Origin: Candidatus Omnitrophota bacterium
GTDB taxonomy: Bacteria; Omnitrophota; Gorgyraeia; Gygaellales; Profunditerraquicolaceae
Direction: 5' to 3'
Assembly: GCA_035402765.1 (NCBI GenBank)
Contig: DAONDX010000009.1
Location: 10,350 to 74,349 of the forward strand
Length of the DNA: 64,000 nt
Position numbers and translations under genes: made by a program. The notes beneath the pieces are model-generated. The model worked only from the letters and a program-made list of their open reading frames with translations. It did not search any database and had not been told where the DNA came from. Shown here piece by piece: positions 32,669-56,487 of the stretch. Position 1 is the stretch's first letter. The number at the start of each line of letters is the position of its first letter.

Positions 32669-32672
32669 TTAA

Positions 32673-32712
32673 CCCCGCACCTTCTTTTAATTAAACATCA
32701 GAAGGCGCAGGG
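32673..32712. repeat. Intergenic hairpin element, copy 1 (stem CCCCGCACCTTCT / AGAAGGCGCAGGG)
   Basis: An imperfect (11/13) copy of the stem shared with copies 2 and 3 encloses an AT-rich 15-nt loop and is followed by TTT. Confidence 0.6.
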
Positions 32713-32741
32713 TTTAGAATTAATGAATAGAGAGAAGGCGC

Positions 32742-34142
32742 ATGGTGAAGACTAAAACCATTTTTAGCTGTTCGGCTTGCGGTTATCAATCGCCTAAATG
32801 GCTGGGGCGGTGCCCGGATTGTAACAACTGGAATACTTTCAGTGAAGAAGACTATGCTCCGGTTTCTTCAAACAGCAAAGAGCGGGTGAGTTTATATAAA
32901 GACGGACCGGTGCTTTTGAAAGATGTGGTGGCCAGGGATGAAGACAGGCTAAAGACTAATATTGTTGAGCTGGACCGGGTTTTAGGCGGAGGGATTGTCC
33001 GCGGATCCGTAATTTTGATCGGCGGAGATCCCGGGGTAGGAAAATCTACTATCTCTCTGCAGGTTTCCAATCACCTGACTAAGCAGGGGATCGGAGTGCT
33101 TTATGTCAGCGGTGAAGAATCGGTAGCCCAGACTAAGTTACGCGCAAAACGTTTAGGTGAATCCGGAACCGATAACCTGTATATCGTCAATCAAACAGAT
33201 CTTTCTTTAATCATTGAATATATAAAAAAATTAAAACCTCAGGTTGTGGTGATTGATTCTATCCAGGTGGTTTTTGATCCAATGATCAGTTCCTCTCCGG
33301 GCAGCGTAAGCCAGGTCAGGGAATGCGCCGCCAGCCTTACGCAATTAGCTAAAACTACCGGAACTTCAATTTTTATTATCGGCCATGTAACCAAAGAAGG
33401 CACGCTGGCTGGCCCGCGCGTTTTAGAGCATATCGTAGACACCGTGCTTTATTTTGAAGGCGACCGTTTTGCGATCTACAGAATATTGCGCGCGGTAAAG
33501 AACCGGTTTGGCTCGACTAATGAGATCGGGGTATTTGAAATGGCTCCGGAGGGGTTACTGGAAGTAAAAAATCCTTCCGAGATCTTTCTTTCTGAGCGGC
33601 CGTCTAATGTTTCCGGCACTATTGTTACTTCCATCCTGGAAGGTTCCCGGCCTTTATTGGTTGAGATCCAATCTTTAGTTTCCAGAAGCAGTTTTGGTTA
33701 TGCGCGCCGCCGCGCGCAAGGTTTTGATTTTAACCGGTTATCTTTATTGGTTGCGGTTCTGGAAAAACGCATGGGTTTGGCTTTGGAGGCTGAAGATATA
33801 TTTATTAATGTTACCGGCGGGATTAAGATTGAAGATCCGGCGGCGGATCTGGCGGTCTGCGCGGTGATTGCTTCCAGTTTTCGCGATCAGGAAGTGCTGC
33901 CTAAAGCGGTAGTTTTGGGAGAAGTAGGATTAAGCGGAGAAATCAGAAGCATTTCGCAGGTGCTTACGCGGATCAATGAAGCCGAGAAGTTGGGCTTCCA
34001 GCATTGTATTCTGCCCAAAAACAGCATTAAGAACCTTAAATTAAAAAAATCGGATATGGAGATTATCGCCGTTTCGACTTTAAAAGAAGCCTTAGATATT
34101 ATTCTAAAATCATCAATCAAGCAGCAAGGCATTTCTGGTTAA
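32742..34142 (+). CDS. radA: DNA repair protein RadA/Sms
   Basis: An N-terminal zinc ribbon CSACGY...CPDC, a RecA-like Walker A GDPGVGKST, KNRFG and a C-terminal Lon-like domain are present. Confidence 0.9.
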   Translation: MVKTKTIFSCSACGYQSPKWLGRCPDCNNWNTFSEEDYAPVSSNSKERVSLYKDGPVLLKDVVARDEDRLKTNIVELDRVLGGGIVRGSVILIGGDPGVGKSTISLQVSNHLTKQGIGVLYVSGEESVAQTKLRAKRLGESGTDNLYIVNQTDLSLIIEYIKKLKPQVVVIDSIQVVFDPMISSSPGSVSQVRECAASLTQLAKTTGTSIFIIGHVTKEGTLAGPRVLEHIVDTVLYFEGDRFAIYRILRAVKNRFGSTNEIGVFEMAPEGLLEVKNPSEIFLSERPSNVSGTIVTSILEGSRPLLVEIQSLVSRSSFGYARRRAQGFDFNRLSLLVAVLEKRMGLALEAEDIFINVTGGIKIEDPAADLAVCAVIASSFRDQEVLPKAVVLGEVGLSGEIRSISQVLTRINEAEKLGFQHCILPKNSIKNLKLKKSDMEIIAVSTLKEALDIILKSSIKQQGISG

Positions 34143-34168
34143 GAAGTTACCTGGCGTTTATGGTTAAG

Positions 34169-34299
34169 CCGCGTTAAGTTGAATTGCGTGGGTGTCTGTT
34201 GGGTAACGGAGAATAGCGCTGGTGTCCCTTAATATGGGCGCGTGGATATGCCATTGCACCCGACGCTAGTTGGAATTGCGTCGGTGTTGTGTACGTACA
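34169..34299 (+). promoter_or_regulatory. Leader with two copies of a hairpin motif (loop TTRGTTGRAATT) and a 12-bp palindrome GTGTACGTACAC upstream of yacL
   Basis: The hairpins are CCGCG-ttaagttgaatt-GCGTGG at 34169-34191 and CGACGC-tagttggaatt-GCGTCG at 34261-34283, each followed by GTGT. The palindrome at 34288-34299 abuts the RBS. Confidence 0.4.
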
Positions 34300-34314
34300 C
34301 AAGGAGGCAAACAG

Positions 34315-35295
34315 ATGAATTTATTATTAGCACGGCTTTTGTTTATTTTTGGCAGCATGTTTATCGGCTATCAGGCAACGGTAGTCGGAGGTAACGGTCT
34401 GGCGGGTATAATGATCGGTGCGTTGGCAGCGATGATAATGATTTTTATTGAAGTAGGCTTGCGTAAAGTTTCAGTCAGCGGTTTATCCAGCGCGGTATTC
34501 GGCTTAATTTTAGGTTTGATCATGGCTAAGTTAGTCGGAGATGCTTTTAGCCTGGCTCCAGTGGATGCCGGTACGCTTTCCCGGATCCGGGTGGGATTAA
34601 CTTTGATCTTTTGTTATTTGGGCATGGTAATGGCTTTGCGCGGAAAAGATGAATTTAATATTATTATTCCTTATGTGCGCTTGCGCCGGCAGGATCAATC
34701 GCAGGATGTCATTCTCCTGGATACCAGCGTAATTATTGACGGAAGGATCGTGGATATCTGTAAAACGCGTTTTTTAGGCGGAAAAGTAGTTATCCCTAAA
34801 TTTGTGCTTAGAGAATTGCAGCAGATCGCGGATTCTACCGATCCGATCAAACGGCAACGCGGCAGACGGGGTTTGGAGATTTTGAATACTATTCAAAACG
34901 AACCGGGGATGGATATTGCTATTCATGAACAGGATTTCACGGAGACCTCAGAAGTAGATGCGAAATTAGTTTTGTTAGCTAAGTTGCTGGAAGCTAAAAT
35001 CCTGACCGTAGATTTTAATTTAAATCGCGTAGCCAGCATTCAGGGGATTAAAGTATTGAATATTAATGAGTTGGCCAATGCCCTTAAACCGGTGGTTTTC
35101 CCCGGGGAAGAGATGAATATCAAGTTGATTAAAGAAGGCAAGGAGCATAACCAGGCGGTAGGCTATCTGGATGACGGTACGATGGTGGTAGTGGAAGATG
35201 CCCGGCGTTTAATCGGCCAGGATGTTAAGGTAGCGGTCACTTCAGTTTTGCAAACCCAGGCCGGCCGGATGATCTTTACCAAAGTTGAAAAATAA
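34315..35295 (+). CDS. yacL: Membrane-anchored PIN and TRAM domain protein (YacL family)
   Basis: N-terminal TM helices are followed by a PIN domain ([14 protein letters not shown]) and a C-terminal TRAM-like beta-barrel. The start is at 34315 after RBS AAGGAGG. Confidence 0.75.
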
Positions 35296-35981
35296 TGCTT
35301 AGCGCGATTATTGTGGCTGCCGGAAGCGGCAGGCGATTAAAATCTGTCGTCTCCAAACCTTTGGTTAAAATCGGTAAATTGCCGGTAATTAATTATTCTT
35401 TGAGTGTTTTAGACAAACATCCGGCGATTAGCGAGATTATCGTGGTAGTCAATGCTCAGAACCGCCCGGCGATCAAACGCCTGCTTAATAATTGCTCTTT
35501 TAAAAAAGTTAAGCCTTTGGTGCTCGGTGGGAAGCGGCGGCAGGATTCAGTCTATCGGGGGTTAAAAGCGGTCAGCGTAAACAGCGCTTGGGTGTTGATC
35601 CATGATGCCGCCCGGCCGTTCATCGATAAGGCAATGATATCTTCAGTCGTTTCGGCGGCTAAAAAAACCGGCTCAGCCGTTGTGGCTGTGCAACCAAAAG
35701 CAACGATAAAATTATCGCAAAAGAATAATATCGTTCAGAAAACTTTAGACCGGGAAAAACTTTGGGAAATTCAGACTCCGCAGGTTTTCAAAAAAGAATT
35801 AATTTGGCGGGCCTATGAAAAGTATGCCGGTAGCTGTGTTACTGATGATGCGGCTTTGATCGAAAAATTGGGCAGGCCAGTTGAGCTGGTCAGGGGTAAG
35901 TATGAAAATATCAAGATTACTACGGCTGAAGATCTGCTGTTGGCCGGATTAATTGCTGAAAGGTTAAAAAATGCGGTATAA
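35295..35981 (+). CDS. ispD: 2-C-methyl-D-erythritol 4-phosphate cytidylyltransferase
   Basis: IIVAAGSGRRL and the IspD fold are present. Confidence 0.85.
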   Translation: MLSAIIVAAGSGRRLKSVVSKPLVKIGKLPVINYSLSVLDKHPAISEIIVVVNAQNRPAIKRLLNNCSFKKVKPLVLGGKRRQDSVYRGLKAVSVNSAWVLIHDAARPFIDKAMISSVVSAAKKTGSAVVAVQPKATIKLSQKNNIVQKTLDREKLWEIQTPQVFKKELIWRAYEKYAGSCVTDDAALIEKLGRPVELVRGKYENIKITTAEDLLLAGLIAERLKNAV

Positions 35982-36453
35982 AATTGGTATAGGTTATGAT
36001 ATCCACCGCCTGGTTGAAGGAAGAAAGCTGCTTTTAGGGGCAGTGGAGATTCCTTATTCTAAAGGCCTGCTGGGGCATTCCGACGGGGATGCGCTCATCC
36101 ATGCGCTTTGCGATGCGATATTAGGCGCTTTAGCTTTCGGTGATATCGGCGAACATTTCCCGGATACGGATCCTAAATATAAAGATATTGCCAGCAGCCA
36201 GCTGTTAACCATGGTTAAGGAATTTTTAGATGATAGCGGATATAAAATCAATAACCTGGATGTAATTATTATTGCCCAGGAGCCCAAATTGCTGCTTTAT
36301 AAAAAACAAATGCGGGAAAATATCTGTGAACTTTTAGGGATCCGGCGGGATCTTTTAAATATCAAAGCCAAGACTAATGAAGGGTTAGGGGAGCTGGGCC
36401 GTTGCGAAGCAATTGCCTGCTATGTTACAGCGTCATTAATTAAGGGAGAGTGA
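35971..36453 (+). CDS. ispF: 2-C-methyl-D-erythritol 2,4-cyclodiphosphate synthase
   Basis: [10 protein letters not shown] and [10 protein letters not shown] match the IspF metal site. Confidence 0.9.
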
Positions 36454-36454
36454 G

Positions 36455-37135
36455 ATGGCTTATCTTATCTGCATTTTTATTATATTATTAACGATATTTC
36501 TAATTAAGCTGATACTTATTTCCGTATTCTTTTATGCGGATATCCGGGCGGCGCAGAAAAGAGATCCGGCAGCCAAGAGTTTTCTGGAGGTAATTTTACT
36601 TTACCCTGGCTTGCACGCTTTAATTTATTATCGTATTGCGCATGCTTTCTATAGCATAAGGTTATTTTTTTTAGCGCGCCTGTTATCTCAAATTGCCAGG
36701 TTTTCTACCGGTATCGAGATCCATCCGGGAGCTCGAATCGGCAAGCGTTTTTTTATCGATCATGGGCTAGGGGTGGTGATCGGAGAGACGACGATTATTG
36801 GAAATGATGTTTTGCTTTATCAGGGCTCGACTTTAGGCGGTACCGGGATCGTCGGTGGTAAGCGCCATCCGACGATCGGTAATAATGTGGTGATCGGCGC
36901 CGGAGCCAAAGTTTTAGGCAATATTGTAATCGGAGATAATTCCTATATCGGAGCAAACGCGGTAGTGGTCAAAGATGTACCGCCGAATTCCACAGTGGTC
37001 GGTATTCCCGGTAGAATTACTAAACAGGATGGCAAAAAAATGGACACCGACCTGGACCATGCGCGGATACTGGACCCGATTATGCAGACGATTGAAGAAC
37101 TGCAGGATAGAATTAAGAATTTAGAGAAAAATTAA
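36455..37135 (+). CDS. cysE: Serine O-acetyltransferase
   Basis: A left-handed beta-helix with hexapeptide repeats and the SAT N-terminal region are present. Confidence 0.8.
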
Positions 37136-37150
37136 TCAGCGGTAAGTTGT

Positions 37151-37184
37151 AAGCCGTAAGCTTTAAGCTTAAAACTTACGGCTT
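37151..37184 (+). promoter_or_regulatory. Strong hairpin between cysE and cysS (10-bp stem AAGCCGTAAG/CTTACGGCTT)
   Basis: A perfect 10-bp stem encloses a 14-nt loop containing AAGCTT. No T-tract follows. Confidence 0.4.
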
Positions 37185-37222
37185 ATCGCTTATAGCTAAC
37201 TTAGATTTCGGATTTAACCATC

Positions 37223-38662
37223 ATGCCTATCTTTATATATAATTCCCTCAAAAGAGAAAAAGAAGAATTTATTCCTCTGGACCCTAAAGGCAAAGAGGTT
37301 AAAATGTATGTCTGCGGCCCGACGGTTTATGATGCGCCGCATATCGGCCACGCCCGCAGCGCTTACATATTTGATGTAGTCAGAAGGTATTTAGAATACC
37401 GGGACTATAAAGTTAAGTTTGTCAGAAATGTGACGGATGTTGATGATAAAATTATTGATAAAGCGAAAAAAGAATATGCGGGAGAAGATCTGAATTCTGC
37501 CGTGAGCAAAGTTTCTGCCAAATATCTTGATCTCTACCATGAAGATATGAAAAGCTTAGGCATTCTTGATCCGGATGTTGAGCCTAAGGCTACCGAATAT
37601 GTATGCCCGGATAAACCTTTAATGCAGAAATTTATCCAGCAATTGATTGATAAGGGCTGCGCCTATGTTTCCGAAGGCGATGTGTATTTTGATATCAAAA
37701 AAGCCAAAGGCTATGGCAAGTTGTCTAACCAGGCGATAGAAAAAATGGAATCCGGAGCAAGGATCGCGCTCGGTGAAAAAAAGAAAGATCCGCTGGATTT
37801 CGCGTTATGGAAATCCGCTAAGCCCGGAGAGCCGGCTTGGGATAGCCCTTGGGGGCTTGGCCGTCCGGGCTGGCATATAGAGTGTTCGGTAATGAGTTCG
37901 GATATTTTAGGGGATGAATTTGATATTCACGGGGGAGGAATTGACCTTATTTTCCCGCACCATGAAAATGAAATCGCTCAGTCTGAGGGCGCCGGTAAAA
38001 AATTTGCCCATTACTGGATACATCACGGTTTACTGACCATTAATGGCCAGAAGATGTCCAAGTCTTTAGGGAATTTTATAACGGTAAAAGATTTTATTAA
38101 TAAACACAAATATTCTGATTTATTGAAACTGTTATTTCTTTCTACGCATTATTCCCACCCCGTAGATTATACAGAGGAAAAGGTCGAAGAAGCCAAAAGC
38201 GCCTACGCCGGGATTATAAACTTAATGCATAGGTTAGATAAGGAATACGGCTCTCGACAGAAGATTAGCGGAGGCGGCAGCGGAGCCATCCAGCAGTTTA
38301 AAATAAGATTTGATGAATACATGGATGATGATTTTAATACTCCCCGGGCTCTTTCTGTGCTTTTTGAAATGGTAAAACTTTGTAATATAGAGTTTGATAG
38401 TAAGGATGTCCATAAGGCAGAAAAATTAAATTACGCATTTTCAGTAATTAAAGAAATGGCAGAAATTTTAGGCTTGGATTTTATTATTGATGTCCCTAAA
38501 GAAATTTCTGATGATGACATAGAGTTTAAGATTTCCGCAAGGAAGGTTTTAAAGGGAGAAAAGAAATTTACTGAGGCTGATCAGGTTAGAAAAGAATTAG
38601 AGTCCAAAGGTATAATTCTAGAAGATACTAAAGATGGCACAACTTGGCGAAGAAAATTATGA
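37223..38662 (+). CDS. cysS: Cysteinyl-tRNA synthetase
   Basis: HIGHARS and KMSKS class I motifs are present. Confidence 0.95.
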   Translation: MPIFIYNSLKREKEEFIPLDPKGKEVKMYVCGPTVYDAPHIGHARSAYIFDVVRRYLEYRDYKVKFVRNVTDVDDKIIDKAKKEYAGEDLNSAVSKVSAKYLDLYHEDMKSLGILDPDVEPKATEYVCPDKPLMQKFIQQLIDKGCAYVSEGDVYFDIKKAKGYGKLSNQAIEKMESGARIALGEKKKDPLDFALWKSAKPGEPAWDSPWGLGRPGWHIECSVMSSDILGDEFDIHGGGIDLIFPHHENEIAQSEGAGKKFAHYWIHHGLLTINGQKMSKSLGNFITVKDFINKHKYSDLLKLLFLSTHYSHPVDYTEEKVEEAKSAYAGIINLMHRLDKEYGSRQKISGGGSGAIQQFKIRFDEYMDDDFNTPRALSVLFEMVKLCNIEFDSKDVHKAEKLNYAFSVIKEMAEILGLDFIIDVPKEISDDDIEFKISARKVLKGEKKFTEADQVRKELESKGIILEDTKDGTTWRRKL

Positions 38663-39267
38663 AAGGCAAATTCATCACATTTGAAGGCTCCGAGGGCTGC
38701 GGCAAAAGCACGCAGTCTGAGATGCTGTTTACTTATCTTAAAAGTAAAGGGCATAAGGTGATTTATTTGCGTGAGCCCGGCGGGGTAAAGTTAAGTGAAA
38801 ATATCAGGACAATCCTGCTGGATCCTAAAAATAAGATATCGGCTCCGGCTGAAACTTTACTTTATATGGCTGCCCGGGCCCAGGTTGTTGATGAGATAAT
38901 TAAGCCGGCCCTGGAAGAGGGTAAGACAGTGGTTTGCGACCGGTTTCTCGATTCAACTGTCGCTTACCAGGGGTTTGGGTTGGGTGTAGATATAAAGTTA
39001 ATTAAAGTTATCGGTGATTTTGCTACTCAAAGTATACAACCGGATTTGACTATTTTTTTAGACTTACCGCTTGAAAAGGGGCTAGAGTGCCGTAATAATT
39101 GCCCGGACCGCATTGAACAGCGTAGTTTAAGTTACCATGAAAAGGTCCGCCAGGGGTATCTGACGCTGGCCGAACAAGAGCCGGGCAGGATTAAAGTCGT
39201 AAAAGTTTTAGCGGATAAACTGGATACACAGAATAAAATCCGGGAGATCGTTCTCAATGCGTTTTAA
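38659..39267 (+). CDS. tmk: Thymidylate kinase
   Basis: P-loop FEGSEGCGKST is present. The ATG overlaps the cysS stop (ATGA). Confidence 0.85.
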   Translation: MKGKFITFEGSEGCGKSTQSEMLFTYLKSKGHKVIYLREPGGVKLSENIRTILLDPKNKISAPAETLLYMAARAQVVDEIIKPALEEGKTVVCDRFLDSTVAYQGFGLGVDIKLIKVIGDFATQSIQPDLTIFLDLPLEKGLECRNNCPDRIEQRSLSYHEKVRQGYLTLAEQEPGRIKVVKVLADKLDTQNKIREIVLNAF

Positions 39268-40216
39268 TGAAGTTTTAGGACATGACCGCGCGTTAAGCAT
39301 TGTTAAAGCGCATTTAGCTAATAACCGTTTTTCCGGAGCATATATCTTCAGCGGCCCGGAAGGGATCGGAAAGAAGATGGTGGCTAAAATTATCGCGCAA
39401 TATCTTAATTGCACCGGCCAAGGCGATTGGCCGTGTGAAAATTGCGGTTCATGTTTAAAGATCCAGAAAGAGCAGCATCCTGATCTGCATATAATTCAAA
39501 ATGAACAGTCCCAGATTAAAATCGAGGATATCCGCCAGATCCTAAGGCAGGCAAATTTTCGCCCGTATGAAGGCAGGGCTAAAGTTTTTATTATCGATAA
39601 TGCGCATAAATTAAATATTGAAGCGGCTAATTCTTTACTTAAAGTGTTAGAAGAGCCGCCTAAAGATGTGCTGATTATTTTAATTACCCATAAGCCTCAA
39701 AATATCATTAAAACCGTGCTTTCCCGCTGTAAGGTCATAAAATTTCCGCCTTTGGTCAGGTCTGAGTTAGAAGAAATTTTAGTAAAGCAATACGCTTTAG
39801 ATAGGACTTCGGCGCATTTTTTGGCTTATTACGCAGAAGGCCGTTTAGGTTTGGCTTTAAAATTAAAGGATACTCCTTTGTTGCAGGAAAAGAATAAGCT
39901 CTTCGATGCTTTTATCCTTTCGGCAAAACCTTTGGATCGGAGTATCATGAGCCAGAATAAAGAACAATTGCAGGTAAGCTTGAATATTCTGGCTTCCTGG
40001 TTTCGGGATATCTATTTATTGAAATGCGGAGCAAGCGAAAAAGAGACAATTCATTTAGACCGGCATAGCGATTTACTAAAGCTAATACCCAAGTTTTCTT
40101 TTAAGCAGCTGGATGATATTATGCTGGCGCTTTCAGAAAGCTCTTTGTATCTGGAAAAGAATATTAACAGTAAATTGCTTTTGCATAATTTGGGGGCGCA
40201 ACTATGGAAGGTATGA
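39257..40216 (+). CDS. holB: DNA polymerase III delta-prime subunit
   Basis: It is AAA+ clamp-loader-like (GPEGIGKKMVA) with a zinc module CTGQGDWPCENCGSC. Confidence 0.8.
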   Translation: MRFNEVLGHDRALSIVKAHLANNRFSGAYIFSGPEGIGKKMVAKIIAQYLNCTGQGDWPCENCGSCLKIQKEQHPDLHIIQNEQSQIKIEDIRQILRQANFRPYEGRAKVFIIDNAHKLNIEAANSLLKVLEEPPKDVLIILITHKPQNIIKTVLSRCKVIKFPPLVRSELEEILVKQYALDRTSAHFLAYYAEGRLGLALKLKDTPLLQEKNKLFDAFILSAKPLDRSIMSQNKEQLQVSLNILASWFRDIYLLKCGASEKETIHLDRHSDLLKLIPKFSFKQLDDIMLALSESSLYLEKNINSKLLLHNLGAQLWKV

Positions 40217-41010
40217 TCCTGGTTCAACTTAATAATTCCGGTATTGTTCAATTTTATCAGGCGGGTAATTTAAACTTAAAAGTCGGCGATTATGTGATTG
40301 TTGAACATGACCGAGGCCTGGATTGCGGCTGCGTAATCCCTAATTGTAAAGCGCATTGCGGGCATGAAGATATGCCTAAAGAGCTGCCTAAAAAAATAAT
40401 CCGCCTGGCCAAGGAAAGCGACCTTAAGCAGGTTGCGGATAATGCTATTCGCGCCAAAGAAGCGTTTAACGCCTGTGAAAAGAAGATCTTTGAGCACAAG
40501 CTGGATATGAAATTGGTAAAAGCGGAGTATTCTTTCGACCGCTCCAAGATCCTGTTTTATTTTACTTCTGACGGCCGGGTGGATTTCCGTGACCTGGTTA
40601 AAGATTTAGCTAAAGTATTTAAAGCTCGCATTGAATTAAGGCAGATCGGAGTCAGGGATGAAGCCCGGCTTTTCGGCGGGTACGGTTCCTGCGGACGTGA
40701 GCTTTGCTGTAAAAAATTCTTAAAAGATTTTGAGCCGGTAACCATCAAGATGGCTAAAGAAGAGGGGCTGCCGCTTAATCCTCCTAAAATTTCCGGATTA
40801 TGCGGCAGGTTAATGTGTTGTTTATCTTATGAATATGAAACTTATAAGCTGCTTTCTAAAGGATTGCCGCGCGAGGGTGAACATTTAAGTACCCCTGAAG
40901 GCAAGGGTAAAGTAATGAATGTAAATGTTTTTAAACGCCTGGTCGGCGTGCAGCTGGATGAAGGCGGTTATATCGAGGTAAGCTATAAGGAAAAAGAACA
41001 TGTCAAATAA
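40204..41010 (+). CDS. ricT: PSP1 C-terminal domain protein (RicT/YaaT family)
   Basis: A PSP1 domain with conserved Cys clusters (CGRELCC...CGRLMCC) is present. It follows holB, as in Bacillus. Confidence 0.75.
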   Translation: MEGMILVQLNNSGIVQFYQAGNLNLKVGDYVIVEHDRGLDCGCVIPNCKAHCGHEDMPKELPKKIIRLAKESDLKQVADNAIRAKEAFNACEKKIFEHKLDMKLVKAEYSFDRSKILFYFTSDGRVDFRDLVKDLAKVFKARIELRQIGVRDEARLFGGYGSCGRELCCKKFLKDFEPVTIKMAKEEGLPLNPPKISGLCGRLMCCLSYEYETYKLLSKGLPREGEHLSTPEGKGKVMNVNVFKRLVGVQLDEGGYIEVSYKEKEHVK

Positions 41011-42499
41011 ATTCTATATTACGACGCCTATTTATTATGTGAATGCTTCTCCGCATATCGGGCATTCTTATACCACTATCGCCGCGGATGTTTTAACCAG
41101 GTTTAAACGCCGGGTTTTGGGTAAAGAAAATGTCCGGTTCCTGACCGGTACCGATGAACACGGCCAAAAGATCCAGAAAGCCGCCGATGCCGCCAAACTT
41201 TCGGCCCAAAGTTTTGTCGATCAAACAAGCCAGCAGTTCAGGGACCTTTGGAAATCGCTGGATGTTTCTTATGACGATTTTATCCGTACGACACAGCCGC
41301 GGCATGTTAAAGTCGTGCAGAAGTGTTTGGAGATCATTTTTAAAAAGGGCGATATTTATGAAGGTAAATATGAAGGATTATATTGCACTCCTTGTGAAAC
41401 ATTCTGGCTTGAAGCCCAGGCTGTAGGAGGCTTGTGCCCGGATTGCCATCGGCCGGTGGAGCGGATTGTGGAAACCAACTACTTTTTTAAATTGACCAAA
41501 TACCAGGATTGGCTTTTAGGCTATCTTAGGGAGAACCCGGATTTTATTAAGCCCGGCAGCCGCTACGAAGAAACTCTGCGCTTTCTGGAGTTAAATAAAT
41601 TAAATGATTTATGTATTTCCCGGCCTAAAGAAAGGCTTAGTTGGGGGATACCTTTACCTTTTGCTCCGGAGCATGTGACCTATGTTTGGTTTGACGCTTT
41701 AGTCAATTATATTAGCGCAGTCGGTGAATTCGATGCCCGGGATAATTATGTTTCTAAATGGTGGCCGGCTGAATTACATTTGATGGCCAAGGATATTTTA
41801 AGGCAGCATACAGTGTATTGGCCGATAATGCTGCACGCTTTAAATATCGAGCTTCCTAAGAGAGTGTTTGCGCATGGCTGGTGGATGTTGAATGAAGATA
41901 AGATGTCTAAATCCAGGGGTAACGTGGTTAATCCGCTTGAGATGGTGGAAAAATACGGTTTGGATGCCTATCGATATTTTCTTCTGCGGGAGGTTCCTTT
42001 CGGCCTGGACGGTAACTTTTCGGAAGAAGGGATCATTAAACGTTATAACAGCGATTTAGCCAATGACCTGGGGAATTTAGTTTATCGTACCCTGACAATG
42101 GTAGAGAAATATTTTGACGGAAATATTCCTGATCTAAAATTAAACGGCAGTACCAAATCGGTTGCAGAAATTTTAGCAAAGATAGAGCATTTGCCAGTGC
42201 GGGTTTTTTCGGCCCTGGATGAACAAAATTTTAGTTTGGCGCTGGAATCAATTTGGGAATTAATCGGCATGGCCAATAAGCATGTTGAAGAAACTAAACC
42301 TTGGAATTTAGCTAAAGAAAATAAGCAGGAAGACTTAAAAGAATTTATCCGCCTGTTAGTTGATGTGATCCGGGCAGTAGCCGATAAACTGGAAATTTTT
42401 ATTCCCCAGACCGCTGCATCGATCCAGGAGCAGTTTGTTGGAGATAAGGTTAAAAAAGGTAACCCGTTATTTCCGCGCATCGAAACTAAAAAGAAGTAG
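41000..42499 (+). CDS. metG: Methionyl-tRNA synthetase (short form, no C-terminal tRNA-binding domain)
   Basis: HIGHSYT and KMSKS are present, with a zinc knuckle CTPCE...CPDCH. Confidence 0.95.
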   Translation: MSNKFYITTPIYYVNASPHIGHSYTTIAADVLTRFKRRVLGKENVRFLTGTDEHGQKIQKAADAAKLSAQSFVDQTSQQFRDLWKSLDVSYDDFIRTTQPRHVKVVQKCLEIIFKKGDIYEGKYEGLYCTPCETFWLEAQAVGGLCPDCHRPVERIVETNYFFKLTKYQDWLLGYLRENPDFIKPGSRYEETLRFLELNKLNDLCISRPKERLSWGIPLPFAPEHVTYVWFDALVNYISAVGEFDARDNYVSKWWPAELHLMAKDILRQHTVYWPIMLHALNIELPKRVFAHGWWMLNEDKMSKSRGNVVNPLEMVEKYGLDAYRYFLLREVPFGLDGNFSEEGIIKRYNSDLANDLGNLVYRTLTMVEKYFDGNIPDLKLNGSTKSVAEILAKIEHLPVRVFSALDEQNFSLALESIWELIGMANKHVEETKPWNLAKENKQEDLKEFIRLLVDVIRAVADKLEIFIPQTAASIQEQFVGDKVKKGNPLFPRIETKKK

Positions 42500-42501
42500 T
42501 C

Positions 42502-43263
42502 ATGCTGATTGATACGCATTGTCATTTAGATTTTCCCGCCTTTGATCCGGACCGTGACCAGGTTATCCGGCGCGCCTTGGATACAGAAATAAAATATTTT
42601 ATTAATATTGGCGCCACCCTGGAGTCTTCGGCCGCCGCAGTAGCCCTGGCCGGCAAATACCCGGAAGTTTATGCCAGCGTCGGCGTGCATCCGCATGATG
42701 CGGATACTTTTGATCTGGCCGCGGAAGGCCTGTTAAGGCAGCTGGCCGCCGGAAAAAAAGTAGTGGCGATCGGAGAAACGGGGCTGGATTATTACCGGAA
42801 TCTCTCCAGCCGGGAAAATCAAAAGCGGGTATTTTGTAAACAGATTGATCTAGCCAAAGAGCTGGATTTACCACTAGTAATACATTCTCGGGAGGCTTTT
42901 GAAGAAACCCTGCAGATTTTAAAGCCGGCTTTACCTTTGCGGGCTGTAGTGCATTGTTTCTCCGGAGATGAGAATTTTTTAAAAGCCTGTTTGGATTACG
43001 GATTTTTTATTTCTTACACCTGTAATATTACTTATAAAAAAGCCGCATTTTTAAGAGAGATGGTTAATTTAACTCCCTTGGATAGGTTGATGCTGGAAAC
43101 TGACGCTCCTTATTTGTCTCCGGAAGGGTCGCGCGGCCAGCGCAATGAACCGGCTCAGATTGAATTATTAGCCCGGCAGGTCAGCCAAATTAAAGGGGTT
43201 AGTTTTGAGAAAATAGCGGATCAAACTACTTGTAACGCCAAAGGATTTTTTAATCTGAAATGA
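42502..43263 (+). CDS. tatD: TatD-family metal-dependent DNase
   Basis: IDTHCHLDF and conserved His/Asp/Glu metal ligands are present. Confidence 0.85.
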   Translation: MLIDTHCHLDFPAFDPDRDQVIRRALDTEIKYFINIGATLESSAAAVALAGKYPEVYASVGVHPHDADTFDLAAEGLLRQLAAGKKVVAIGETGLDYYRNLSSRENQKRVFCKQIDLAKELDLPLVIHSREAFEETLQILKPALPLRAVVHCFSGDENFLKACLDYGFFISYTCNITYKKAAFLREMVNLTPLDRLMLETDAPYLSPEGSRGQRNEPAQIELLARQVSQIKGVSFEKIADQTTCNAKGFFNLK

Positions 43264-44384
43264 GCGCAAAGATCTCAGTTGTTAAATGTAATGGTTATCA
43301 TCCGGAGTTAGTCTTGCAGGCAACCAGAAGATCGCTTGAGCTTTTGGGCGGGATTGAAGCGTTTATTAAACCCAATTCCAGCGTATTAGTTAAGCCGAAT
43401 CTTTTATTGTCAAAGAGCCCGGAGTATGGGATTACTACGCATCCGGAAGTGGTTAGGGCGGTGATCCGGATATTAAAAGAAATTGGCTGTAAAATTACCG
43501 TAGGCGATGGTCCGAGCGTCTGGGGCCAGTATATTGAAAATGCGGATGAAGTCTATGCCGCTACCGGGATAAAAGGAGTTTGCCGGGATGAAGATGTAAG
43601 GCTGGTAAATTTTGATAAACGCCGGATGCATAATAAATTCCCCCTTACCAGCTGGCTGGATGAGTGTGATTATTTAGTCAATCTGCCTAAATTTAAAACT
43701 CACGAGTTTACTTTAATAACCGGAGGGATAAAAAATCTTTTCGGTTTGGTTTCCGGTACCTTTAAAATTGAGCTGCATAAGAGTCATTTTGCGCCGGCGG
43801 ATTTTTCAAAAGTCCTGGTCGATATTTATCAGGAGGTAAGGCCGCATTTAACGATTATTGACGGGATATTAGCCATGGAAGGGGACGGGCCTTCTACCAG
43901 CGGAAAAACCCGCCAACTTAATCTCCTGCTTGCCGGTTATGATTGCGTAGCTTTGGATACAGTAATGGCCGAAATAATGGGCATTGCTCCGGGAGCGGTG
44001 CTTTCGACAAAAGAAGCGGTATTACGTAATTTAGGGGAAGGCCAGCTAAGCAATATCCGGATCGTCGGTGAAGACATTAAAAAATTAAATATCCGGCCGT
44101 TTATTTTACCGAAAAATTCAACCCTGGTAAGTAAGATCCCCGGCCCGATTAAGAAAATAATTAAAGCGTTAGTTAAATATTATCCTTATTCACTACGCCT
44201 GAAATGTACGCGTTGCGGTCATTGCGTTAAAGTTTGTCCGCAAAAATGCATCCGGCTGAAAAAACAAGGGATTAATTTCGATTATAAAAGATGTATTGCC
44301 TGCTTTTGCTGTCAGGAAGCTTGTCCGGAAGCCGCCATCGGCGTAAAGAAGAGCCTTCTGGCTAAATTAATTGAATTTATTTAA
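43260..44384 (+). CDS. DUF362 domain protein with two C-terminal 4Fe-4S ferredoxin motifs
   Basis: A DUF362-like N-terminal region is followed by CTRCGHCVKVCP and CIACFCCQEACP. Confidence 0.6.
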   Translation: MSAKISVVKCNGYHPELVLQATRRSLELLGGIEAFIKPNSSVLVKPNLLLSKSPEYGITTHPEVVRAVIRILKEIGCKITVGDGPSVWGQYIENADEVYAATGIKGVCRDEDVRLVNFDKRRMHNKFPLTSWLDECDYLVNLPKFKTHEFTLITGGIKNLFGLVSGTFKIELHKSHFAPADFSKVLVDIYQEVRPHLTIIDGILAMEGDGPSTSGKTRQLNLLLAGYDCVALDTVMAEIMGIAPGAVLSTKEAVLRNLGEGQLSNIRIVGEDIKKLNIRPFILPKNSTLVSKIPGPIKKIIKALVKYYPYSLRLKCTRCGHCVKVCPQKCIRLKKQGINFDYKRCIACFCCQEACPEAAIGVKKSLLAKLIEFI

Positions 44385-44387
44385 TTC

Positions 44388-45443
44388 ATGCGTATCCGCA
44401 CTATAGACTGGAAGAATAATAAGATCAGGATTATTGATCAATCGCAAATACCGCTGAAAGTAGTTTATCTTGATCTTAATTGTCTGAAAGATCTTTGGCA
44501 GGCGATCAAGTCCATGCGGGTGCGCGGCGCTCCGGCTTTAGGTGCCGCCGCCGGATTAGGAATGTATCTGGGGGTAAAGAGTTGTGTTTGTTCTGATTGG
44601 ACCGGATTCAGCCGGAGATTGAATACGGTAGCAAAATTCCTGGGTAGTTCCCGGCCGACTGCCAGGAATTTATTCTGGGGGATTGAAAGAATAAAAGCAA
44701 CCGCCCTGGCTAATAAAGAAAGGCCTGTCGCTAAGATCAAACAGGCTATTTTAGCCGAGGCCCTGTCGATTATGCGCCAGGATATGGCCGCTTGCCGTAA
44801 GCTCGGTGATTACGGAGCCAAGCTGCTTAAAAATAATAACCGGGTATTAACGATCTGTAATGCCGGAATATTGGCGACCATTGATTATGGCACTGCCTTG
44901 GGAGTTATTTATTCTGCCTGCGCGCAAGGCAAACAGATAAAAGTTTTTGCCTCAGAAACGCGGCCTTTATTGCAGGGTGGGCGGCTATCCTCATGGGAGT
45001 TGCATAAACAAGGTATCGATGTTACTTTAATTCCGGATAATACTGCCGCCAAACTCATGCAAGATGGCCAGATCGATATGGTGATTACCGGAGCAGACCG
45101 GATTGCTGCTAATGGTGATACCGCCAATAAGATCGGTACTTTAAATCTGGCAGTTTTGGCTAAATACCACAAGGTGCCTTTTTATGTTGCTGCGCCTAAA
45201 ACTACCTTTGATTTGGCGCTTCAAGATAAAACCGGAATCAAGATCGAAATGCGCAAAGCCCAGGAGGTAAGCAGTATTCTTTTCAGAAGAAAAGTCGCTC
45301 CGCAAGGAGCCAAAATACTTAATCCGGCTTTTGATGTAACCGCGCACCAGTTGATTAGCGGCATAATTACGGATGAGGGGATTATCCGGCCGCCGTATTT
45401 ACAAAATATCAGGAAAATTTTAAAGGAAAATAAATGCAAATAA
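44388..45443 (+). CDS. mtnA: S-methyl-5-thioribose-1-phosphate isomerase (eIF-2B alpha/beta/delta family)
   Basis: MtnA/e2b2-like sequence is recognised from CNAGILATIDYGTALG and TGADRIAANGDTANKIGT. Confidence 0.75.
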   Translation: MRIRTIDWKNNKIRIIDQSQIPLKVVYLDLNCLKDLWQAIKSMRVRGAPALGAAAGLGMYLGVKSCVCSDWTGFSRRLNTVAKFLGSSRPTARNLFWGIERIKATALANKERPVAKIKQAILAEALSIMRQDMAACRKLGDYGAKLLKNNNRVLTICNAGILATIDYGTALGVIYSACAQGKQIKVFASETRPLLQGGRLSSWELHKQGIDVTLIPDNTAAKLMQDGQIDMVITGADRIAANGDTANKIGTLNLAVLAKYHKVPFYVAAPKTTFDLALQDKTGIKIEMRKAQEVSSILFRRKVAPQGAKILNPAFDVTAHQLISGIITDEGIIRPPYLQNIRKILKENKCK

Positions 45444-46330
45444 AAGATATCGGCGAATTTGGATTAATTAAAAGATTTCAGAAAATGATTAAAGTTAATT
45501 CTTCGGTCATTGAGGGCAGCGGTGATGATTGCGCGGTTTTAAAATACAACCGGAGCAGTTATCAATTATTTACCTGCGACATGATCGTAGAGGGGGTAGA
45601 TTTTTATAAAACCGCCGATTTTAGATTAGTGGGGAGGAAGGCTTTAGCGGTATCGATTAGCGATATTGCTGCCTGCGGCGGAATCCCAAAACATGCGGTA
45701 GTATCCTTAGGCCTGCCTAAACATACTCCGGTTAGCCGGGTAGATCTTTTAGCTAAAGGCCTATTCGGCCTGGCGAATAAATTTAATATTAATATTGTCG
45801 GAGGAGATATTTCGGTTTCGGATAAATTGATTATTGATGTGAGTATGCTGGGAGAGGTGGCTTGTGATAAACTTTGTTTACGCCGGGGGGCTAAGCCCGG
45901 TGATATCCTGATGGTGACTGGAGAATTCGGCGGATCAATTAAAGGCAAGCATCTGAAATTTACGCCGCGTTTAAAAGAAGCGCAATTTTTAGTGAATCAT
46001 TTTAAGATTAATGCCATGATTGATGTTTCCGACGGCTTGCTCCAGGATCTCGGGCATATTTTAAAACAGAGTTCGGTGGGGGCGGTTTTATATGAGACCC
46101 TTCTTCCTTTAAGTAAGCAGGCTCAAGGCACGGATGAGGCGCTTTGTTCGGGGGAAGAGTTTGAGCTGCTTTTTTGCGCTTCCCGTGATCAGGCGGGTAA
46201 AATTATCAAGAACGCGAAATACCGTTTTAAGGTCATCGGGGAAATTATGCCGGAAGCATTCGGTCTAAGATTAATTAACTATAAAAATAAATATTCTAAG
46301 CTTAAGCTGAAAGGTTATCGCCATTTTTGA
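45434..46330 (+). CDS. thiL: Thiamine-monophosphate kinase
   Basis: The AIR-synthase-related fold is present with GDDCAVL and GGDIS. Confidence 0.8.
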   Translation: MQIKDIGEFGLIKRFQKMIKVNSSVIEGSGDDCAVLKYNRSSYQLFTCDMIVEGVDFYKTADFRLVGRKALAVSISDIAACGGIPKHAVVSLGLPKHTPVSRVDLLAKGLFGLANKFNINIVGGDISVSDKLIIDVSMLGEVACDKLCLRRGAKPGDILMVTGEFGGSIKGKHLKFTPRLKEAQFLVNHFKINAMIDVSDGLLQDLGHILKQSSVGAVLYETLLPLSKQAQGTDEALCSGEEFELLFCASRDQAGKIIKNAKYRFKVIGEIMPEAFGLRLINYKNKYSKLKLKGYRHF

Positions 46331-46797
46331 TGGAAAAATTGTCTATATCGGTTAATCAAACATTAAGATTAGGTAAACGGATCGCCGCTAATCTTTCCGG
46401 CGGAGAGATTATCCTTTTATCCGGACAGTTGGGAGCGGGAAAGACGATTTTAGCCAAAGGAATCGCTCAAGGGTTAGGGATCAATAAGGATGATGTGGTC
46501 AGTCCGACCTTTGTTTTATTGAGGCTTTATCCAGGGAAGCTTCTCTTACAGCATTTTGATTTTTACCGTATTAAAAGCCCGCAAGATATTTTTGCTTTAG
46601 GTTATCAGGAATATTTGTATTCTGATGCCGTAACGGTTATCGAGTGGCCCGAACGTTTAAAATTCCTCTTGCCAAAGGAATTTTTAAAGATTAAGCTAGT
46701 GCTTAAAGCTAAAGATCAAAGATATTTTAAATTCACGGCTAAAGGCCCCAGGTATAAAGAATTGCTAAAAAAGATTCAGGCCTCTTGTATTTTCTAA
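46327..46797 (+). CDS. tsaE: tRNA threonylcarbamoyladenosine biosynthesis ATPase TsaE
   Basis: P-loop GQLGAGKT is present. Confidence 0.85.
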   Translation: MMEKLSISVNQTLRLGKRIAANLSGGEIILLSGQLGAGKTILAKGIAQGLGINKDDVVSPTFVLLRLYPGKLLLQHFDFYRIKSPQDIFALGYQEYLYSDAVTVIEWPERLKFLLPKEFLKIKLVLKAKDQRYFKFTAKGPRYKELLKKIQASCIF

Positions 46798-46856
46798 ATA
46801 GTTATTGTTTAAAAAGAAGAAGGGAATGGTTATAAATAAAAGAAGGCAGGGATGAA

Positions 46857-46926
46857 CCCCGCACCTTCTAGTTATCCAATATGAAAGTCGCATGGTTTTA
46901 TGATTAAATAGAAAGAAGGTGCGGGG
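46857..46926. repeat. Intergenic hairpin element, copy 2 (perfect 13-bp stem CCCCGCACCTTCT / AGAAGGTGCGGGG with a 44-nt AT-rich loop)
   Basis: The 3' arm contains the tsaB RBS (GAAGGTG) and ends at the GTG start codon. Confidence 0.65.
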
Positions 46927-47600
46927 TGAAGATACTCGGAATTGATACTACTACTAAACTTCTTTGTCTGGGGTTGTATATAGACGGTAAGTTCTATGAA
47001 TACAGCCTGCAGGCCGGCCGCAGCCTTTCCAAATTATTGGTTCCTACGATTCAGCGGGTAATCGGCGCTTTAGATCTAAAAATATCGGATATTGATTATT
47101 TTGCCTGTGGTTTAGGGCCGGGTTCTTTTACCGGGATGCGTATCGGTTTGGCTACGATAAAAGGATTAAGCGTGGTCGCCAACCAGCCGGTGCTTGGGAT
47201 TCCGACATTGGATATCCTGGCCAGAAATGCTGATGTTTTCGACCGCCCGATCATTACCGCGCTGGATGCCCGGCGGGGCCTGATCTATTGCAGTTGTTAT
47301 AAATATGAAAAAGGTATTTTAAAACGCAAGAGTGATTATTTACTCTTGCGTCCGGATGAATTGGCCAAGAAGTTTCCGGCTAAAGCTGTGATTTTGGGGG
47401 ATGCTGCGGCTTTATATAAGGATCAGCTATTGTCGCGTATGAAAGGCGCCATAGTTTTGGACAAAGATTATTGGAGCCTCCGGGCGTATCATCTTATAGA
47501 TTTAGCGCAAGCCAAGCTCCGGGCCAGGCAGTTTTCTTCCGCTTTAACGATCAAACCGATTTATTTATACCCAAAAGAATGCCAAATCAAAAAGAAATAG
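46926..47600 (+). CDS. tsaB: tRNA threonylcarbamoyladenosine biosynthesis protein TsaB
   Basis: It has a YeaZ-like actin fold (ILGIDTTT) and a GTG start. Confidence 0.8.
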   Translation: MKILGIDTTTKLLCLGLYIDGKFYEYSLQAGRSLSKLLVPTIQRVIGALDLKISDIDYFACGLGPGSFTGMRIGLATIKGLSVVANQPVLGIPTLDILARNADVFDRPIITALDARRGLIYCSCYKYEKGILKRKSDYLLLRPDELAKKFPAKAVILGDAAALYKDQLLSRMKGAIVLDKDYWSLRAYHLIDLAQAKLRARQFSSALTIKPIYLYPKECQIKKK

Positions 47601-48703
47601 GTTACCGGCCCACCTGGGCAGAGGTTAACCTGAATAATCTGGAGTATAATTTTAAAAAGGTTAAATCTTTGCTGTCGCCTCAAACTAAAGTATTGGTTAC
47701 GGTCAAGGCTGATGCTTACGGGCATGGTTTGATTCCGGTAGCCTCCAGATTAGTTGCCAGCGGCCTGGATTATTTAGGCGTAGCTTCTATTGATGAAGGA
47801 ATAAAATTAAGAAAAGCCGGCATCAGCACGCCGATTTTAATTTTGGGGGTGATTTTGAAGGAAGCTATCCGGCCGCTTTTTACTTACCGGCTGACTCCGA
47901 CTGTTTGTGACTATAAAATGGCGTTTGCGCTTAATCGTTTCGCCGCGGCTTTTAAGCAAAGGATGCCGGTGCATATTAAAGTAGACACCGGAATGGGCAG
48001 GATCGGGGTTTTACCCGGCGAAGCTTTCAAACTGGTAACTGATATTTATAAGCTAAAGCATATCGAAATCCAGGGCATCTTTACGCATTTTCCTCTGGCG
48101 GATGTTGACCAAAATTTCACTTCCAAACAAATTAATTTATTCAATAAATTGGTCGGCAGTTTAAAAGAGCAGGGTATACATATTCCTTTGGTGCATGCTG
48201 CCAATAGTATTGGATTAATCCGTCATGCCAATAGCCATTTTACTATGGTGCGGCCCGGTTTAGTAATCTACGGGTTATATCCGAAAAAGAATTTAGGCCT
48301 GAATTTAAAACCGGTGTTAAGCCTTAAAACCCGTATCGTTTTTATTAAACAGGTAGGAGGGGCAGTTGGGATAAGTTACGGATTAACTTATCGCACTAAG
48401 CGCCCAACGCGCATTGTAACTTTACCGATTGGCTACGGCGATGGCTATCCGCGTAATCTTTCTAATCTTGCCTGGCTTTTAATCGGCGGCAGGCGTTTTA
48501 AGATCAGCGGTAGGATTTGTATGGATCAAATTATGGTCGATGTCGGAAATTTCCGGCCCCAGGTCGCCGATGAGGTTATTTTGATCGGGAAACAAGGTAA
48601 ACAAAAAGTTACTGCCGAAGAGCTCGCTAAGTTATCCGGGACAATCTCTTACGAGATTGTTTGTGGATTAGGAAGCAGGATCCCGCGTGTATATAAGCCT
48701 TAA
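47579..48703 (+). CDS. alr: Alanine racemase
   Basis: The PLP-binding motif VKADAYGHG is present with YRPTWAEVNL at the N-terminus. The start is at the internal ATG at 47579 (a 22-nt overlap with tsaB). Confidence 0.85.
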   Translation: MPNQKEIGYRPTWAEVNLNNLEYNFKKVKSLLSPQTKVLVTVKADAYGHGLIPVASRLVASGLDYLGVASIDEGIKLRKAGISTPILILGVILKEAIRPLFTYRLTPTVCDYKMAFALNRFAAAFKQRMPVHIKVDTGMGRIGVLPGEAFKLVTDIYKLKHIEIQGIFTHFPLADVDQNFTSKQINLFNKLVGSLKEQGIHIPLVHAANSIGLIRHANSHFTMVRPGLVIYGLYPKKNLGLNLKPVLSLKTRIVFIKQVGGAVGISYGLTYRTKRPTRIVTLPIGYGDGYPRNLSNLAWLLIGGRRFKISGRICMDQIMVDVGNFRPQVADEVILIGKQGKQKVTAEELAKLSGTISYEIVCGLGSRIPRVYKP

Positions 48704-48776
48704 TCCCGCACCTTCTTCTTATTAAATAACTTTAGAGATAAAATTTTTAGAAACGGAATATACAGAAGGTGCGGGA
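48704..48776. repeat. Intergenic hairpin element, copy 3 (perfect 13-bp stem TCCCGCACCTTCT / AGAAGGTGCGGGA with a 47-nt AT-rich loop) between the convergent alr and lptG stops
   Basis: It exactly fills the gap between the two stop codons and probably acts as a bidirectional terminator. Confidence 0.65.
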
Positions 48777-50998: not shown

Positions 50999-51044
50999 TC
51001 CGTACAGCTTGCCGGTCTTAATATAAACTGCACGGGTTGATAGG

Positions 51045-56278: not shown

Positions 56279-56417
56279 GTGGGACTTTCCTCAGGACATA
56301 TATGCGGGAGGAGCCCCATCGGATTCTTGAGTGGGACTTTCCTCGGGAGATATATGCGGGAGGAGCCCCATCGGATTCTTAAGTGGGACTTTCCTCGGGA
56401 GATATGTGCGGGAGGAG
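56260..56417. repeat. Three tandem copies of a 52-nt unit abutting the tRNA-Leu 3' end, each carrying the tRNA's 3'-terminal 11 nt
   Basis: The unit is ccccatcggattcttgagtgggactttcctcgggagatatatgcgggaggag, with 2-4 substitutions between copies. The first copy overlaps the GH gene stop and the last merges into the tRNA. Confidence 0.8.
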
Positions 56418-56487
56418 GGAGTTGAACCCTCAAGGGTTTCCCCACACGCTTCTGAGACGTGCGCGTATGCCATTCCGCCACTCCCGC
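56407..56487 (-). tRNA. tRNA-Leu (anticodon CAG), class II with a long variable arm; CCA is not encoded
   Basis: The manually folded cloverleaf has acceptor GCGGGAG/CTCCCGC, D-stem GCG/CGC, anticodon stem CACGT/GCGTG with loop CUCAGAA, a 13-nt variable arm and T-stem GAGGG/CCCTC with loop TTCAACT. Confidence 0.85.

Follow-up and report, generated by a model that had tools for sequence, protein, structure and literature searches.

A Probable Miniature Transposon on the Start Codons of Housekeeping Genes in Candidatus Omnitrophota

Introduction

Three intergenic hairpins with nearly identical GC-rich stems lie within a 64,000-nt stretch of the Candidatus Omnitrophota assembly GCA_035402765.1 (contig DAONDX010000009.1, positions 10,350–74,349; hereafter the window). 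One follows mlaD, one separates tsaE from tsaB, and one lies between the convergent genes alr and lptG. Their recurrence raises the question of what they are. A sequence-only reading of the window had proposed a dispersed family, either of the repetitive extragenic palindrome (REP) kind or the kind of miniature transposable elements with inverted repeats (MITE) or a conserved bidirectional terminator module. Here we report that the hairpins are probably copies of a miniature, non-autonomous, MITE-like transposon that is widespread in Candidatus Omnitrophota and sits mostly on start codons, supplying both the Shine-Dalgarno sequence (SD) and the start of the gene that follows.

Identification and distribution of the element

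The three hairpins, built on the stem YCCCGCACCTTCT/AGAAGGTGCGGGR, were confirmed by reading the sequence at the places where they had been described. Against an expected 0.78, the window holds five occurrences of the 11-mer CCGCACCTTCT, a count reached in 0 of 100 shuffles; all five are arms of the three hairpins, and the chance expectation for the full hairpin pattern in the window is zero. The hairpin between alr and lptG exactly fills the gap from stop codon to stop codon, as had been claimed. The description of the hairpin after mlaD needed revision: its loop measures 14 nt rather than 15, and the extent first assigned to it (32673–32712) covers just the 5' arm and the third, internal arm with which it pairs; the full element spans 32673 to 32745. 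The window contains three intact copies and up to three relics, which are listed here with a mini-open reading frame (mini-ORF) that spans the entire 5' arm of copy 2.

32673–32745, plus strand: copy 1, full 73-nt element at the radA start (sequence; full-length nhmmer match, E = 6.6e-12); 5' arm CCCCGCACCTTCT at 32673–32685, internal arm AGAAGGCGCAGGG at 32700–32712, diverged 3' arm AGAAGGCGCATGG at 32733–32745, abutting the radA start
46783–46852, plus strand: older, decayed tandem copy of 70 nt (148 extra nt relative to six relatives; likeness to the consensus judged by eye)
46852–46884, plus strand: putative mini-ORF, read from the sequence, ATG AAC CCC GCA CCT TCT AGT TAT CCA ATA TGA (MNPAPSSYPI*)
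46857–46926, plus strand: copy 2, intact 70-nt element at the tsaB start (nhmmer E = 2.1e-16); 5' arm at 46857–46869, 3' arm at 46914–46926, TGAA duplications at 46853–46856 and 46927–46930
48704–48776, minus strand: copy 3, intact 73-nt element between the convergent genes alr and lptG (nhmmer 46.0 bits on the minus versus 37.7 on the plus strand)
50968–51040, minus strand: possible relic at the lptF start (nhmmer E = 0.44, sequence and a 367-aa gene call; weak)
61483–61558, plus strand: probable relic at the GTG start of the gene at 61558 (nhmmer E = 0.018 and sequence; low confidence)

A pattern search across genomes, which the sequence-only reading had recommended, bore out a dispersed family. 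We scanned one genome per species for CCGCACCTTCT-N(11–71)-AGAAGGYGCRGG and obtained at least 117 stretches. High-GC matches on one strand were set aside before the family was counted, leaving at least 77 loci from 42 species-representative assemblies, with as many as seven loci in one assembly among the matches listed. Of these, 32 are labelled Omnitrophota or Omnitrophica; the remaining labels are Planctomycetes-like or other, and at least one of the latter assemblies encodes an N-terminus nearly identical to that of an Omnitrophota metagenome-assembled genome (MAG). Homologues of the window's TsaB and RadA proteins are 71–95% identical, and those with a named source are from Candidatus Omnitrophota/Omnitrophica. 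The family is unevenly dense, with only one stray arm in 233 kb of other Omnitrophota DNA, and no copy was found in the viral contigs searched. The scan pattern demanded perfect arms, and the sample is tilted accordingly to perfect, young copies. The matches that were set aside comprise high-GC loci, mostly from Actinomycetes and also from Chloroflexi and others (L007, L012, L016, L018, and at least about 35 more). They read CCGCACCTTCT-45–48 nt-AGAAGG(C/T)GCAGG, mostly with a 45-nt GC-rich spacer, and lie on one strand in long open frames of genomes with 71–75% GC; we rejected them as an unrelated, probably conserved coding segment that fits the pattern by chance.

When oriented by the gene that follows, the copies align over their full length (alignment of 47 copies) and have a conserved interior. 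The consensus is (A)TGAA / Y CCCGCACCTTCT AAATATTCAA..ATT AGAAGGTGTGGGGTTTAA TAnATGAATAAGAA AGAAGGTGCGGG R / TGAA. A unit is typically 70–73 nt long, with a modal length of 73 nt and a range of 46–101 nt in the sample. It is bounded by the perfect 13-bp terminal inverted repeats, which have an imperfect extension (TATTCA/TGAATA). The base beside the inverted repeats varies as a pair: C-G in 43 copies, T-A in 14, and mismatched in 10. The interior is asymmetric and holds a third, SD-like arm that resembles the 3' arm. The element's only reading frame is a mini-ORF, at most about 26 codons long, which could not encode a transposase.

Target-site duplications and empty sites

Two lines of evidence carry the case for mobility, namely duplicated flanks and relatives whose sites are empty. 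In 51 of 75 copies the 4 nt on either side form an exact direct repeat; permutations gave 16.8 on average and at most 30 (0 of 10,000 reach 51). Most matching flanks are TGAA, with nine non-canonical matches that include TGAG (four copies), TGGA (three copies), TTGA, and TTAA; three copies resemble duplications of 5–6 nt (L006, L101, L109). Flanks that vary between copies and yet match on both sides are the signature of target-site duplication at a staggered cut.

The tsaE/tsaB junction provides one comparison with an empty site. In six relatives, whose TsaB proteins are 71–79% identical, the two genes overlap and the junction reads ...AAAATTYATGAARAT..., ...ATGAA(A/G)AT. The window carries 148 extra nucleotides at this point, i.e., 2 × (70 + 4), corresponding to two tandem elements that each have a duplication. 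The upstream member (46783–46852) was not separately reported by nhmmer, and we infer its assignment from the length difference and its likeness to the consensus. Decay has turned the 5' arm of this copy into TCTTGTATTTTCT, from which TsaE now takes its last residues and stop codon; the 3' arm, AGAAGGCAGGGA (46841–46852), is a likely SD, and the last A of this arm is the first base of the mini-ORF's ATG. The TsaE protein of a relative (L123) ends in ...KIYEDIRD*, with its gene overlapping tsaB. In the window, TsaE ends in ...KIQASCIF*, and its final six residues together with the stop codon (46778–46797) derive from the older element's decayed duplication and 5' arm; transposon-derived sequence has apparently become coding sequence at the end of this protein.

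Similar evidence was obtained at the mlaD/radA junction. The empty sites of two relatives (L129 and L130) read AAATAATGAAGG and AAATAATGAGGA, with TAATGAAG or TAATGAGG at the junction, and the mlaD stop codon overlaps the radA ATG. The window instead reads AAATAAT(T)AA[73 nt]TGAAGACT. The left flank of copy 1, TTAA (32669–32672), is a decayed TGAA, the right duplication being TGAA (32746–32749); the old ATG ahead of the copy (32668–32670) is now ATT, and the 3' arm contains three changes. Translation of radA starts at GTG 32745 or at ATG 32742, the 465-aa database protein beginning at GTG 32745. The mlaD-radA junction is a hot spot, with a 49-nt unrelated spacer in one relative (L128:1452–1500) and an 85-nt spacer of TGTGTAATG-like tandem repeats in another (L131:1416–1500); beside the two empty relatives, four species carry the element there.

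Copy 3 is flanked by TTAA duplications (48700–48703 and 48777–48780) that each hold one of the two convergent stop codons. No gene begins there, and its interior is oriented on the minus strand. In relatives, the alr-lptG gap holds an unrelated hairpin with a T-run. The sequence-only reading had held that the family would be a chance similarity if it had only these three copies and orthologous loci in relatives carried unrelated terminators. The nearest relatives are indeed empty at copies 1 and 2 and have an unrelated hairpin at copy 3, but this reasoning partly misfires: relatives without the element are not evidence of chance, because presence/absence polymorphism is what a mobile element is expected to show.

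It is these target-site duplications and empty sites that identify the element as a MITE-like transposon rather than a terminator module. The defining features of a MITE, as given in PMC3049150, are present except a cognate insertion sequence, which did not turn up in the loci searched. Several loci additionally contain tandem or nested arrays of elements with a single common TGAA (L035:7520–7545, L050:5887–5912, L114:2568–2602, and L008/L068). These arrays suggest that an earlier copy, by restoring a start codon, offers the next one its insertion site, as in the two tandem copies before tsaB.

Position on start codons

Of the 75 intact copies, 63 (84%) are directly followed by a real ORF. The new start codon consists of the element's last base (G in 45, A in 21, and T in one of 67 copies) and the TG of the duplication, while AGAAGGTG in the 3' repeat sits four bases ahead of this codon as an SD. 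Copy 2 illustrates the arrangement, much as had been noted from the sequence: its 3' arm is the tsaB SD, and the tsaB GTG begins with the element's last base, G46926. This start position matches public gene calls for the same contig.

The downstream ORFs were compared with known families. All 20 tested are housekeeping equivalogs (alaS, rpmC, prs, gatB, rpmJ, coaE, mnmA, pheT, radA, rplQ, ptsH, rplI, hisG, pth, tsaE, tsaB, prmC, rpiB, nifS, and hypD); the alignment begins at residues 1–8 in 19 of them and at residue 40 in pheT. The copies are thereby shown to lie at authentic N-termini. Upstream of the element, A-T-G-A-A was observed in 51–59 of 67 copies, with a purine-rich tract 8–14 nt ahead; these are the gene's former start codon and SD. 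The idea that the module is the genome's general initiation region was rejected, as the window's other genes rely on SDs of the ordinary GGAG type.

With respect to the gene, the interior faces forward in 58 copies and backward in two. The few copies located off start codons have TAAA, TCAA, TAAAAA, or TTAA flanks in the element's forward sense, a weak hint that orientation may follow from an asymmetric target.

RNA folding and proposed coupling

We folded the elements as RNA to evaluate access to the new start. Across 63 copies, the SD and start codon have a predicted mean probability of being unpaired of 0.12 and would cost about 15 kcal/mol to open. Copies in the window fold at z-scores of −3.8 to −8.8. 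Copy 3 is very stable (−40.7 kcal/mol, z = −8.8). In copy 2 (−33 kcal/mol, z = −3.8), the SD and start are predicted to lie inside a 14-bp stem, consistent with the earlier proposal that this hairpin would occlude tsaB initiation. In the predicted fold of copy 1, the 5' arm pairs with the internal arm and the radA SD is free.

A mini-ORF beginning MNPAPS... is found in 56 of 67 elements elsewhere. Of 67 copies, 37 have a length of 1 mod 3; 31 of these keep the upstream start, and in 17 of the 31 the mini-ORF is open as far as the TGA that overlaps the new start. Frame 0 is open in 21 of 56 copies, compared to two and four in the other frames.

These observations are compatible with the following model. 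The element would be moved by a DDE-type transposase. Insertion leaves the gene's old SD and ATG upstream, opening the MNPAPS... mini-ORF across the left repeat; at canonical length, the stop of this mini-ORF is the TGA shared with the new start (RTGA). The two repeats of the transcript are predicted to pair in a 14-bp helix that buries the SD and start codon. Many of the affected genes are essential, and therefore something must open the helix. Ribosomes initiating at the old SD and ATG may do so, translating the mini-ORF, unwinding the helix, and handing over to the gene by translational coupling; such unwinding would explain why insertion into essential genes is tolerated. Over time, the left arm would decay while the right arm is kept as the gene's SD.

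The distribution of partial elements agrees with such a course of decay. Among arms that stand alone at gene starts, right and left arms number about 11 and 2. In the window, the old tandem copy and the two relics form a decay series in which the 5' arm has decayed and the SD-bearing arm is kept. The relic at 61483–61558 has the 3' arm AGAAAGTGCAGAG (61546–61558) followed by TGAA, and its 5' arm has decayed to CGATATATCTTCT. At lptF, AGAAGGTACAGGG (50980–50968, minus strand) is likewise followed by TGAA, and the public gene call begins at that GTG. Overall, the picture is that of a selfish insertion, its cost probably buffered through coupling and its right end later retained as an SD, rather than of a hairpin kept for regulation.

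Evaluation of explanations

Several results weigh against the element being a MITE-like transposon tolerated through coupling. A perfect 4-nt duplication is absent from 24 of 75 copies. The starts of radA (four times), tsaB (three times), and rpmJ (three times) are occupied in different species while nearer relatives are empty, so either very high target specificity or repeated precise loss is needed. About 0.6 Mb of Omnitrophota loci yielded neither an autonomous element nor a transposase bearing these repeats; a search for arm pairs 0.4–4 kb apart and for solitary arms returned one long-range pair (L113), which encloses mnmE and folC and is a chance pair. The invariance of the stem in our sample arises by construction, because the search pattern required perfect arms. 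With regard to coupling, the reversed element is as open as the forward one (25 of 56 versus 21 of 56), and we therefore did not count openness of the mini-ORF as evidence of selection but as a property of the consensus. Both translation of the mini-ORF and its coupling to the gene are putative, drawn from sequence and predicted folding alone. We also considered whether the internal arm acts as a thermodynamic decoy that frees the SD; this was rejected, since equilibrium folding keeps the SD paired in intact copies and frees it only in the decayed copy 1.

A different account of the same observations is that the element actively targets SD...ATGAA sites in a fixed orientation and serves as a replacement initiation cassette, its common hairpin being a handle for global translational control by the cell, a parasite, or a host factor. 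The self-contained cassette may combine an SD with a start base, arms acting as anti-SD and decoy, and a mini-ORF that is in frame and closes with RTGA. We advance this only tentatively. If active targeting were true, dozens of Omnitrophota housekeeping genes would be under one identical SD-occluding hairpin.

Among the alternatives to a MITE-like transposon, we next weighed a REP doublet forming a hairpin (REPIN), i.e., an inverted REP pair moved as single-stranded DNA by a host Y1 (IS200-like) transposase of the REP-associated tyrosine transposase (RAYT) type. The element is built like a REPIN, with two inverted GC-rich repeats and a spacer located outside genes, and Y1_Tnp genes are common in Omnitrophota. 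This explanation was a serious candidate because in two relatives the alr-lptG gap, occupied by copy 3 in the window, contains a Y1_Tnp gene. However, a different hairpin, GGGGACGGTTCTC...GAGAACCGTCCCC, stands on either side of that gene. Among 83 Y1_Tnp loci (233 kb), 74 carry this other family, GGGGACGKTTCT...AGAAMCGTCCCC, with 231 arms, compared to one stray arm of the present family with one mismatch. One 1.19-Mb contig carries both an element-bearing locus (L094) and a Y1 gene, and the latter also has the other hairpin next to it, complete downstream and as a half-arm upstream. The window contains no Y1 gene. Furthermore, Y1 transposition proceeds by a single-strand mechanism and yields no target-site duplication, whereas the present element has variable, matching direct flanks. 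The link is rejected for the Y1_Tnp family sampled in these 83 loci, and we regard the explanation as unlikely. The original suggestion of a REP/MITE-like dispersed family thus stands in the sense of a dispersed MITE, given the loci, duplications, and empty sites described above; it does not stand in the strict REP/RAYT sense, as Y1 genes flank a different hairpin and target-site duplications are made.

The hairpin found beside the Y1 genes merits description in its own right. This second family, GGGGACG(G/T)TTCT...AGAA(A/C)CGTCCCC, flanks IS200-like Y1_Tnp (RAYT-like) genes in Omnitrophota. It is complete on both sides of one Y1 gene (L125:5782–5829 and 6443–6483); at another, a half-arm lies upstream (L132:2935–2955) and a complete hairpin downstream (L132:3608–3662). 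It also occurs alone, in a terminator-like form, in the alr-lptG gap of relatives (L122–L127, around 5780–5850), whereas the window has none. The family appears to be a hitherto undescribed REP/RAYT system of Omnitrophota.

We then considered a vertically inherited, non-mobile cis-regulatory RNA leader, akin to a riboswitch, thermometer, or attenuator, in which three arms switch pairing to control a regulon. Sequestration of the SD and start in the predicted fold fits such a role, as does the conserved internal arm, which could pair with the 5' arm in place of the 3' arm (as predicted for copy 1); the sequence is also conserved across 42 species. These features must be set against the empty sites in close relatives, the target-site duplications, and the tandem and nested copies. 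The downstream genes are functionally unrelated, copy 3 has no gene behind it, and the 5' arm is decayed in old copies. RNAalifold detected no conserved structure past the 14-bp outer stem and only one covarying pair. No Rfam family matches the element: a search of the whole window against Rfam 15 at gathering scores returned only tmRNA and a tRNA, and a search up to E = 10 around copy 2 returned only sub-threshold hairpins resembling microRNA precursors. A leader as the origin of the family is quite improbable, although a leader role could hold as a secondary exaptation of the transposon.

A terminator module or 3'-end stabilizer, whether intrinsic or bidirectional, is very improbable. In its favor, copy 3 is a very stable hairpin that fills a convergent gap, at a place where relatives have a classical hairpin with a T-run. 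Yet no U-tract follows any of the three stems, whose loops measure 14, 44, and 47 nt (44–47 nt in copies 2 and 3), and a scan of the window for terminators does not list these hairpins. Most copies lie directly before a start codon (the 84% given above), many of them within operons such as tsaE-tsaB where termination would be harmful; the proposal of a conserved bidirectional terminator module did not survive these findings. Lastly, paired DNA-uptake sequences of the Neisseria DUS or Haemophilus USS type that form hairpins by chance can be dismissed with near certainty: a 12-mer is conserved in many species, often as inverted pairs, and AGAAGGTGCGGG presumably bears a loose likeness to the Haemophilus USS core, but the 64-kb window lacks solitary copies (which make up only 18 of 202 arms elsewhere), the density is about 0.08 per kb, no intact copy was found within coding sequence, and the conserved interior, duplications, and empty sites are left unexplained.

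Comparison with known systems and implications

The element resembles known bacterial MITEs (Correia of Neisseria, Nezha of cyanobacteria, and RUP of pneumococci) in its small size, terminal inverted repeats, target-site duplication, and absence of a transposase gene. Further likenesses are the many copies per genome, the strongly folded transcript, presence/absence in relatives, and possible effects on expression of neighboring genes. It differs from them in being much shorter (70–73 nt), in landing on start codons in one orientation, and in having a repeat end that gives the SD and begins the new start codon. In addition, dozens of species in one candidate phylum share the identical repeat, and its cognate insertion sequence was not found in the loci searched. 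The present element is like REPINs with RAYT transposases in being an inverted doublet with a long hairpin that is located outside genes and conserved within a lineage; unlike them, it has target-site duplications, and the clade's RAYT-like genes are flanked by the other hairpin family.

The closest functional analogues in the literature are the REP2 repeats of Neisseria and the IR repeats of Borrelia, as far as the passages of Delihas (2011; PMC3184786) describe them: these are dispersed, lie directly upstream of many unrelated genes, and carry a ribosome-binding site and ATG. According to the same passages, REP2 is without terminal inverted repeats, and both REP2 and the Borrelia repeats contain a promoter (PMC3184786). 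The passages on REP2 mention no duplications; in the present element, duplications occur together with empty sites and perfect inverted ends. No evidence of a promoter was found in the present element.

Translational coupling is a known arrangement in which a hairpin that occludes an SD is opened by an upstream ribosome, as with leader peptides and overlapping genes. The proposed arrangement is like it in that an upstream ORF crosses the strand that pairs with the downstream SD, with a stop/start overlap (RTGA). It would differ from usual coupling in being delivered ready-made by a transposon to many genes, rather than arising by local gene evolution. A full-text literature search for the arm sequences returned only unrelated primers, and the open-access literature gave no description of this repeat family or of a MITE that replaces start codons.

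Transposons are normally depleted upstream of genes because promoters and ribosome-binding sites are disrupted there (Plague, 2010; PMC2942039). The present element shows the opposite: it sits on the starts of essential genes (alaS, gatB, pheT, prs, pth, tsaB, and ribosomal protein genes) and replaces their initiation signals. If the proposed coupling is true, the element would be a natural, portable translation-initiation module, and a clear case of selfish DNA that neutralizes its own cost and is then kept as a gene's SD. At a practical level, the element accounts for excess GTG starts and "MNPAPS" mini-ORFs in Omnitrophota MAGs, and it may serve as a marker for gene-start annotation and strain-level polymorphism. 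It is also a caution against taking such hairpins for terminators or riboswitches.

Other features of the window

A long, imperfect palindrome or tandem of GTAAGC-like units, unrelated to the element, is located at 37126–37209 with 46-nt arms that are 76% complementary; it lies between an ORF ending at 37135 and a Cys-tRNA ligase gene starting at 37223. The window also contains a tRNA-Leu(CAG) gene (56406–56487) and a tmRNA gene (58123–58520) with the tag peptide ANTTVFNRLAPMATLMPAGVPALAFN. Within the latter is a perfect 24-nt palindrome, CTTAGCGTTTAATTAAACGCTAAG, at 58283–58306.

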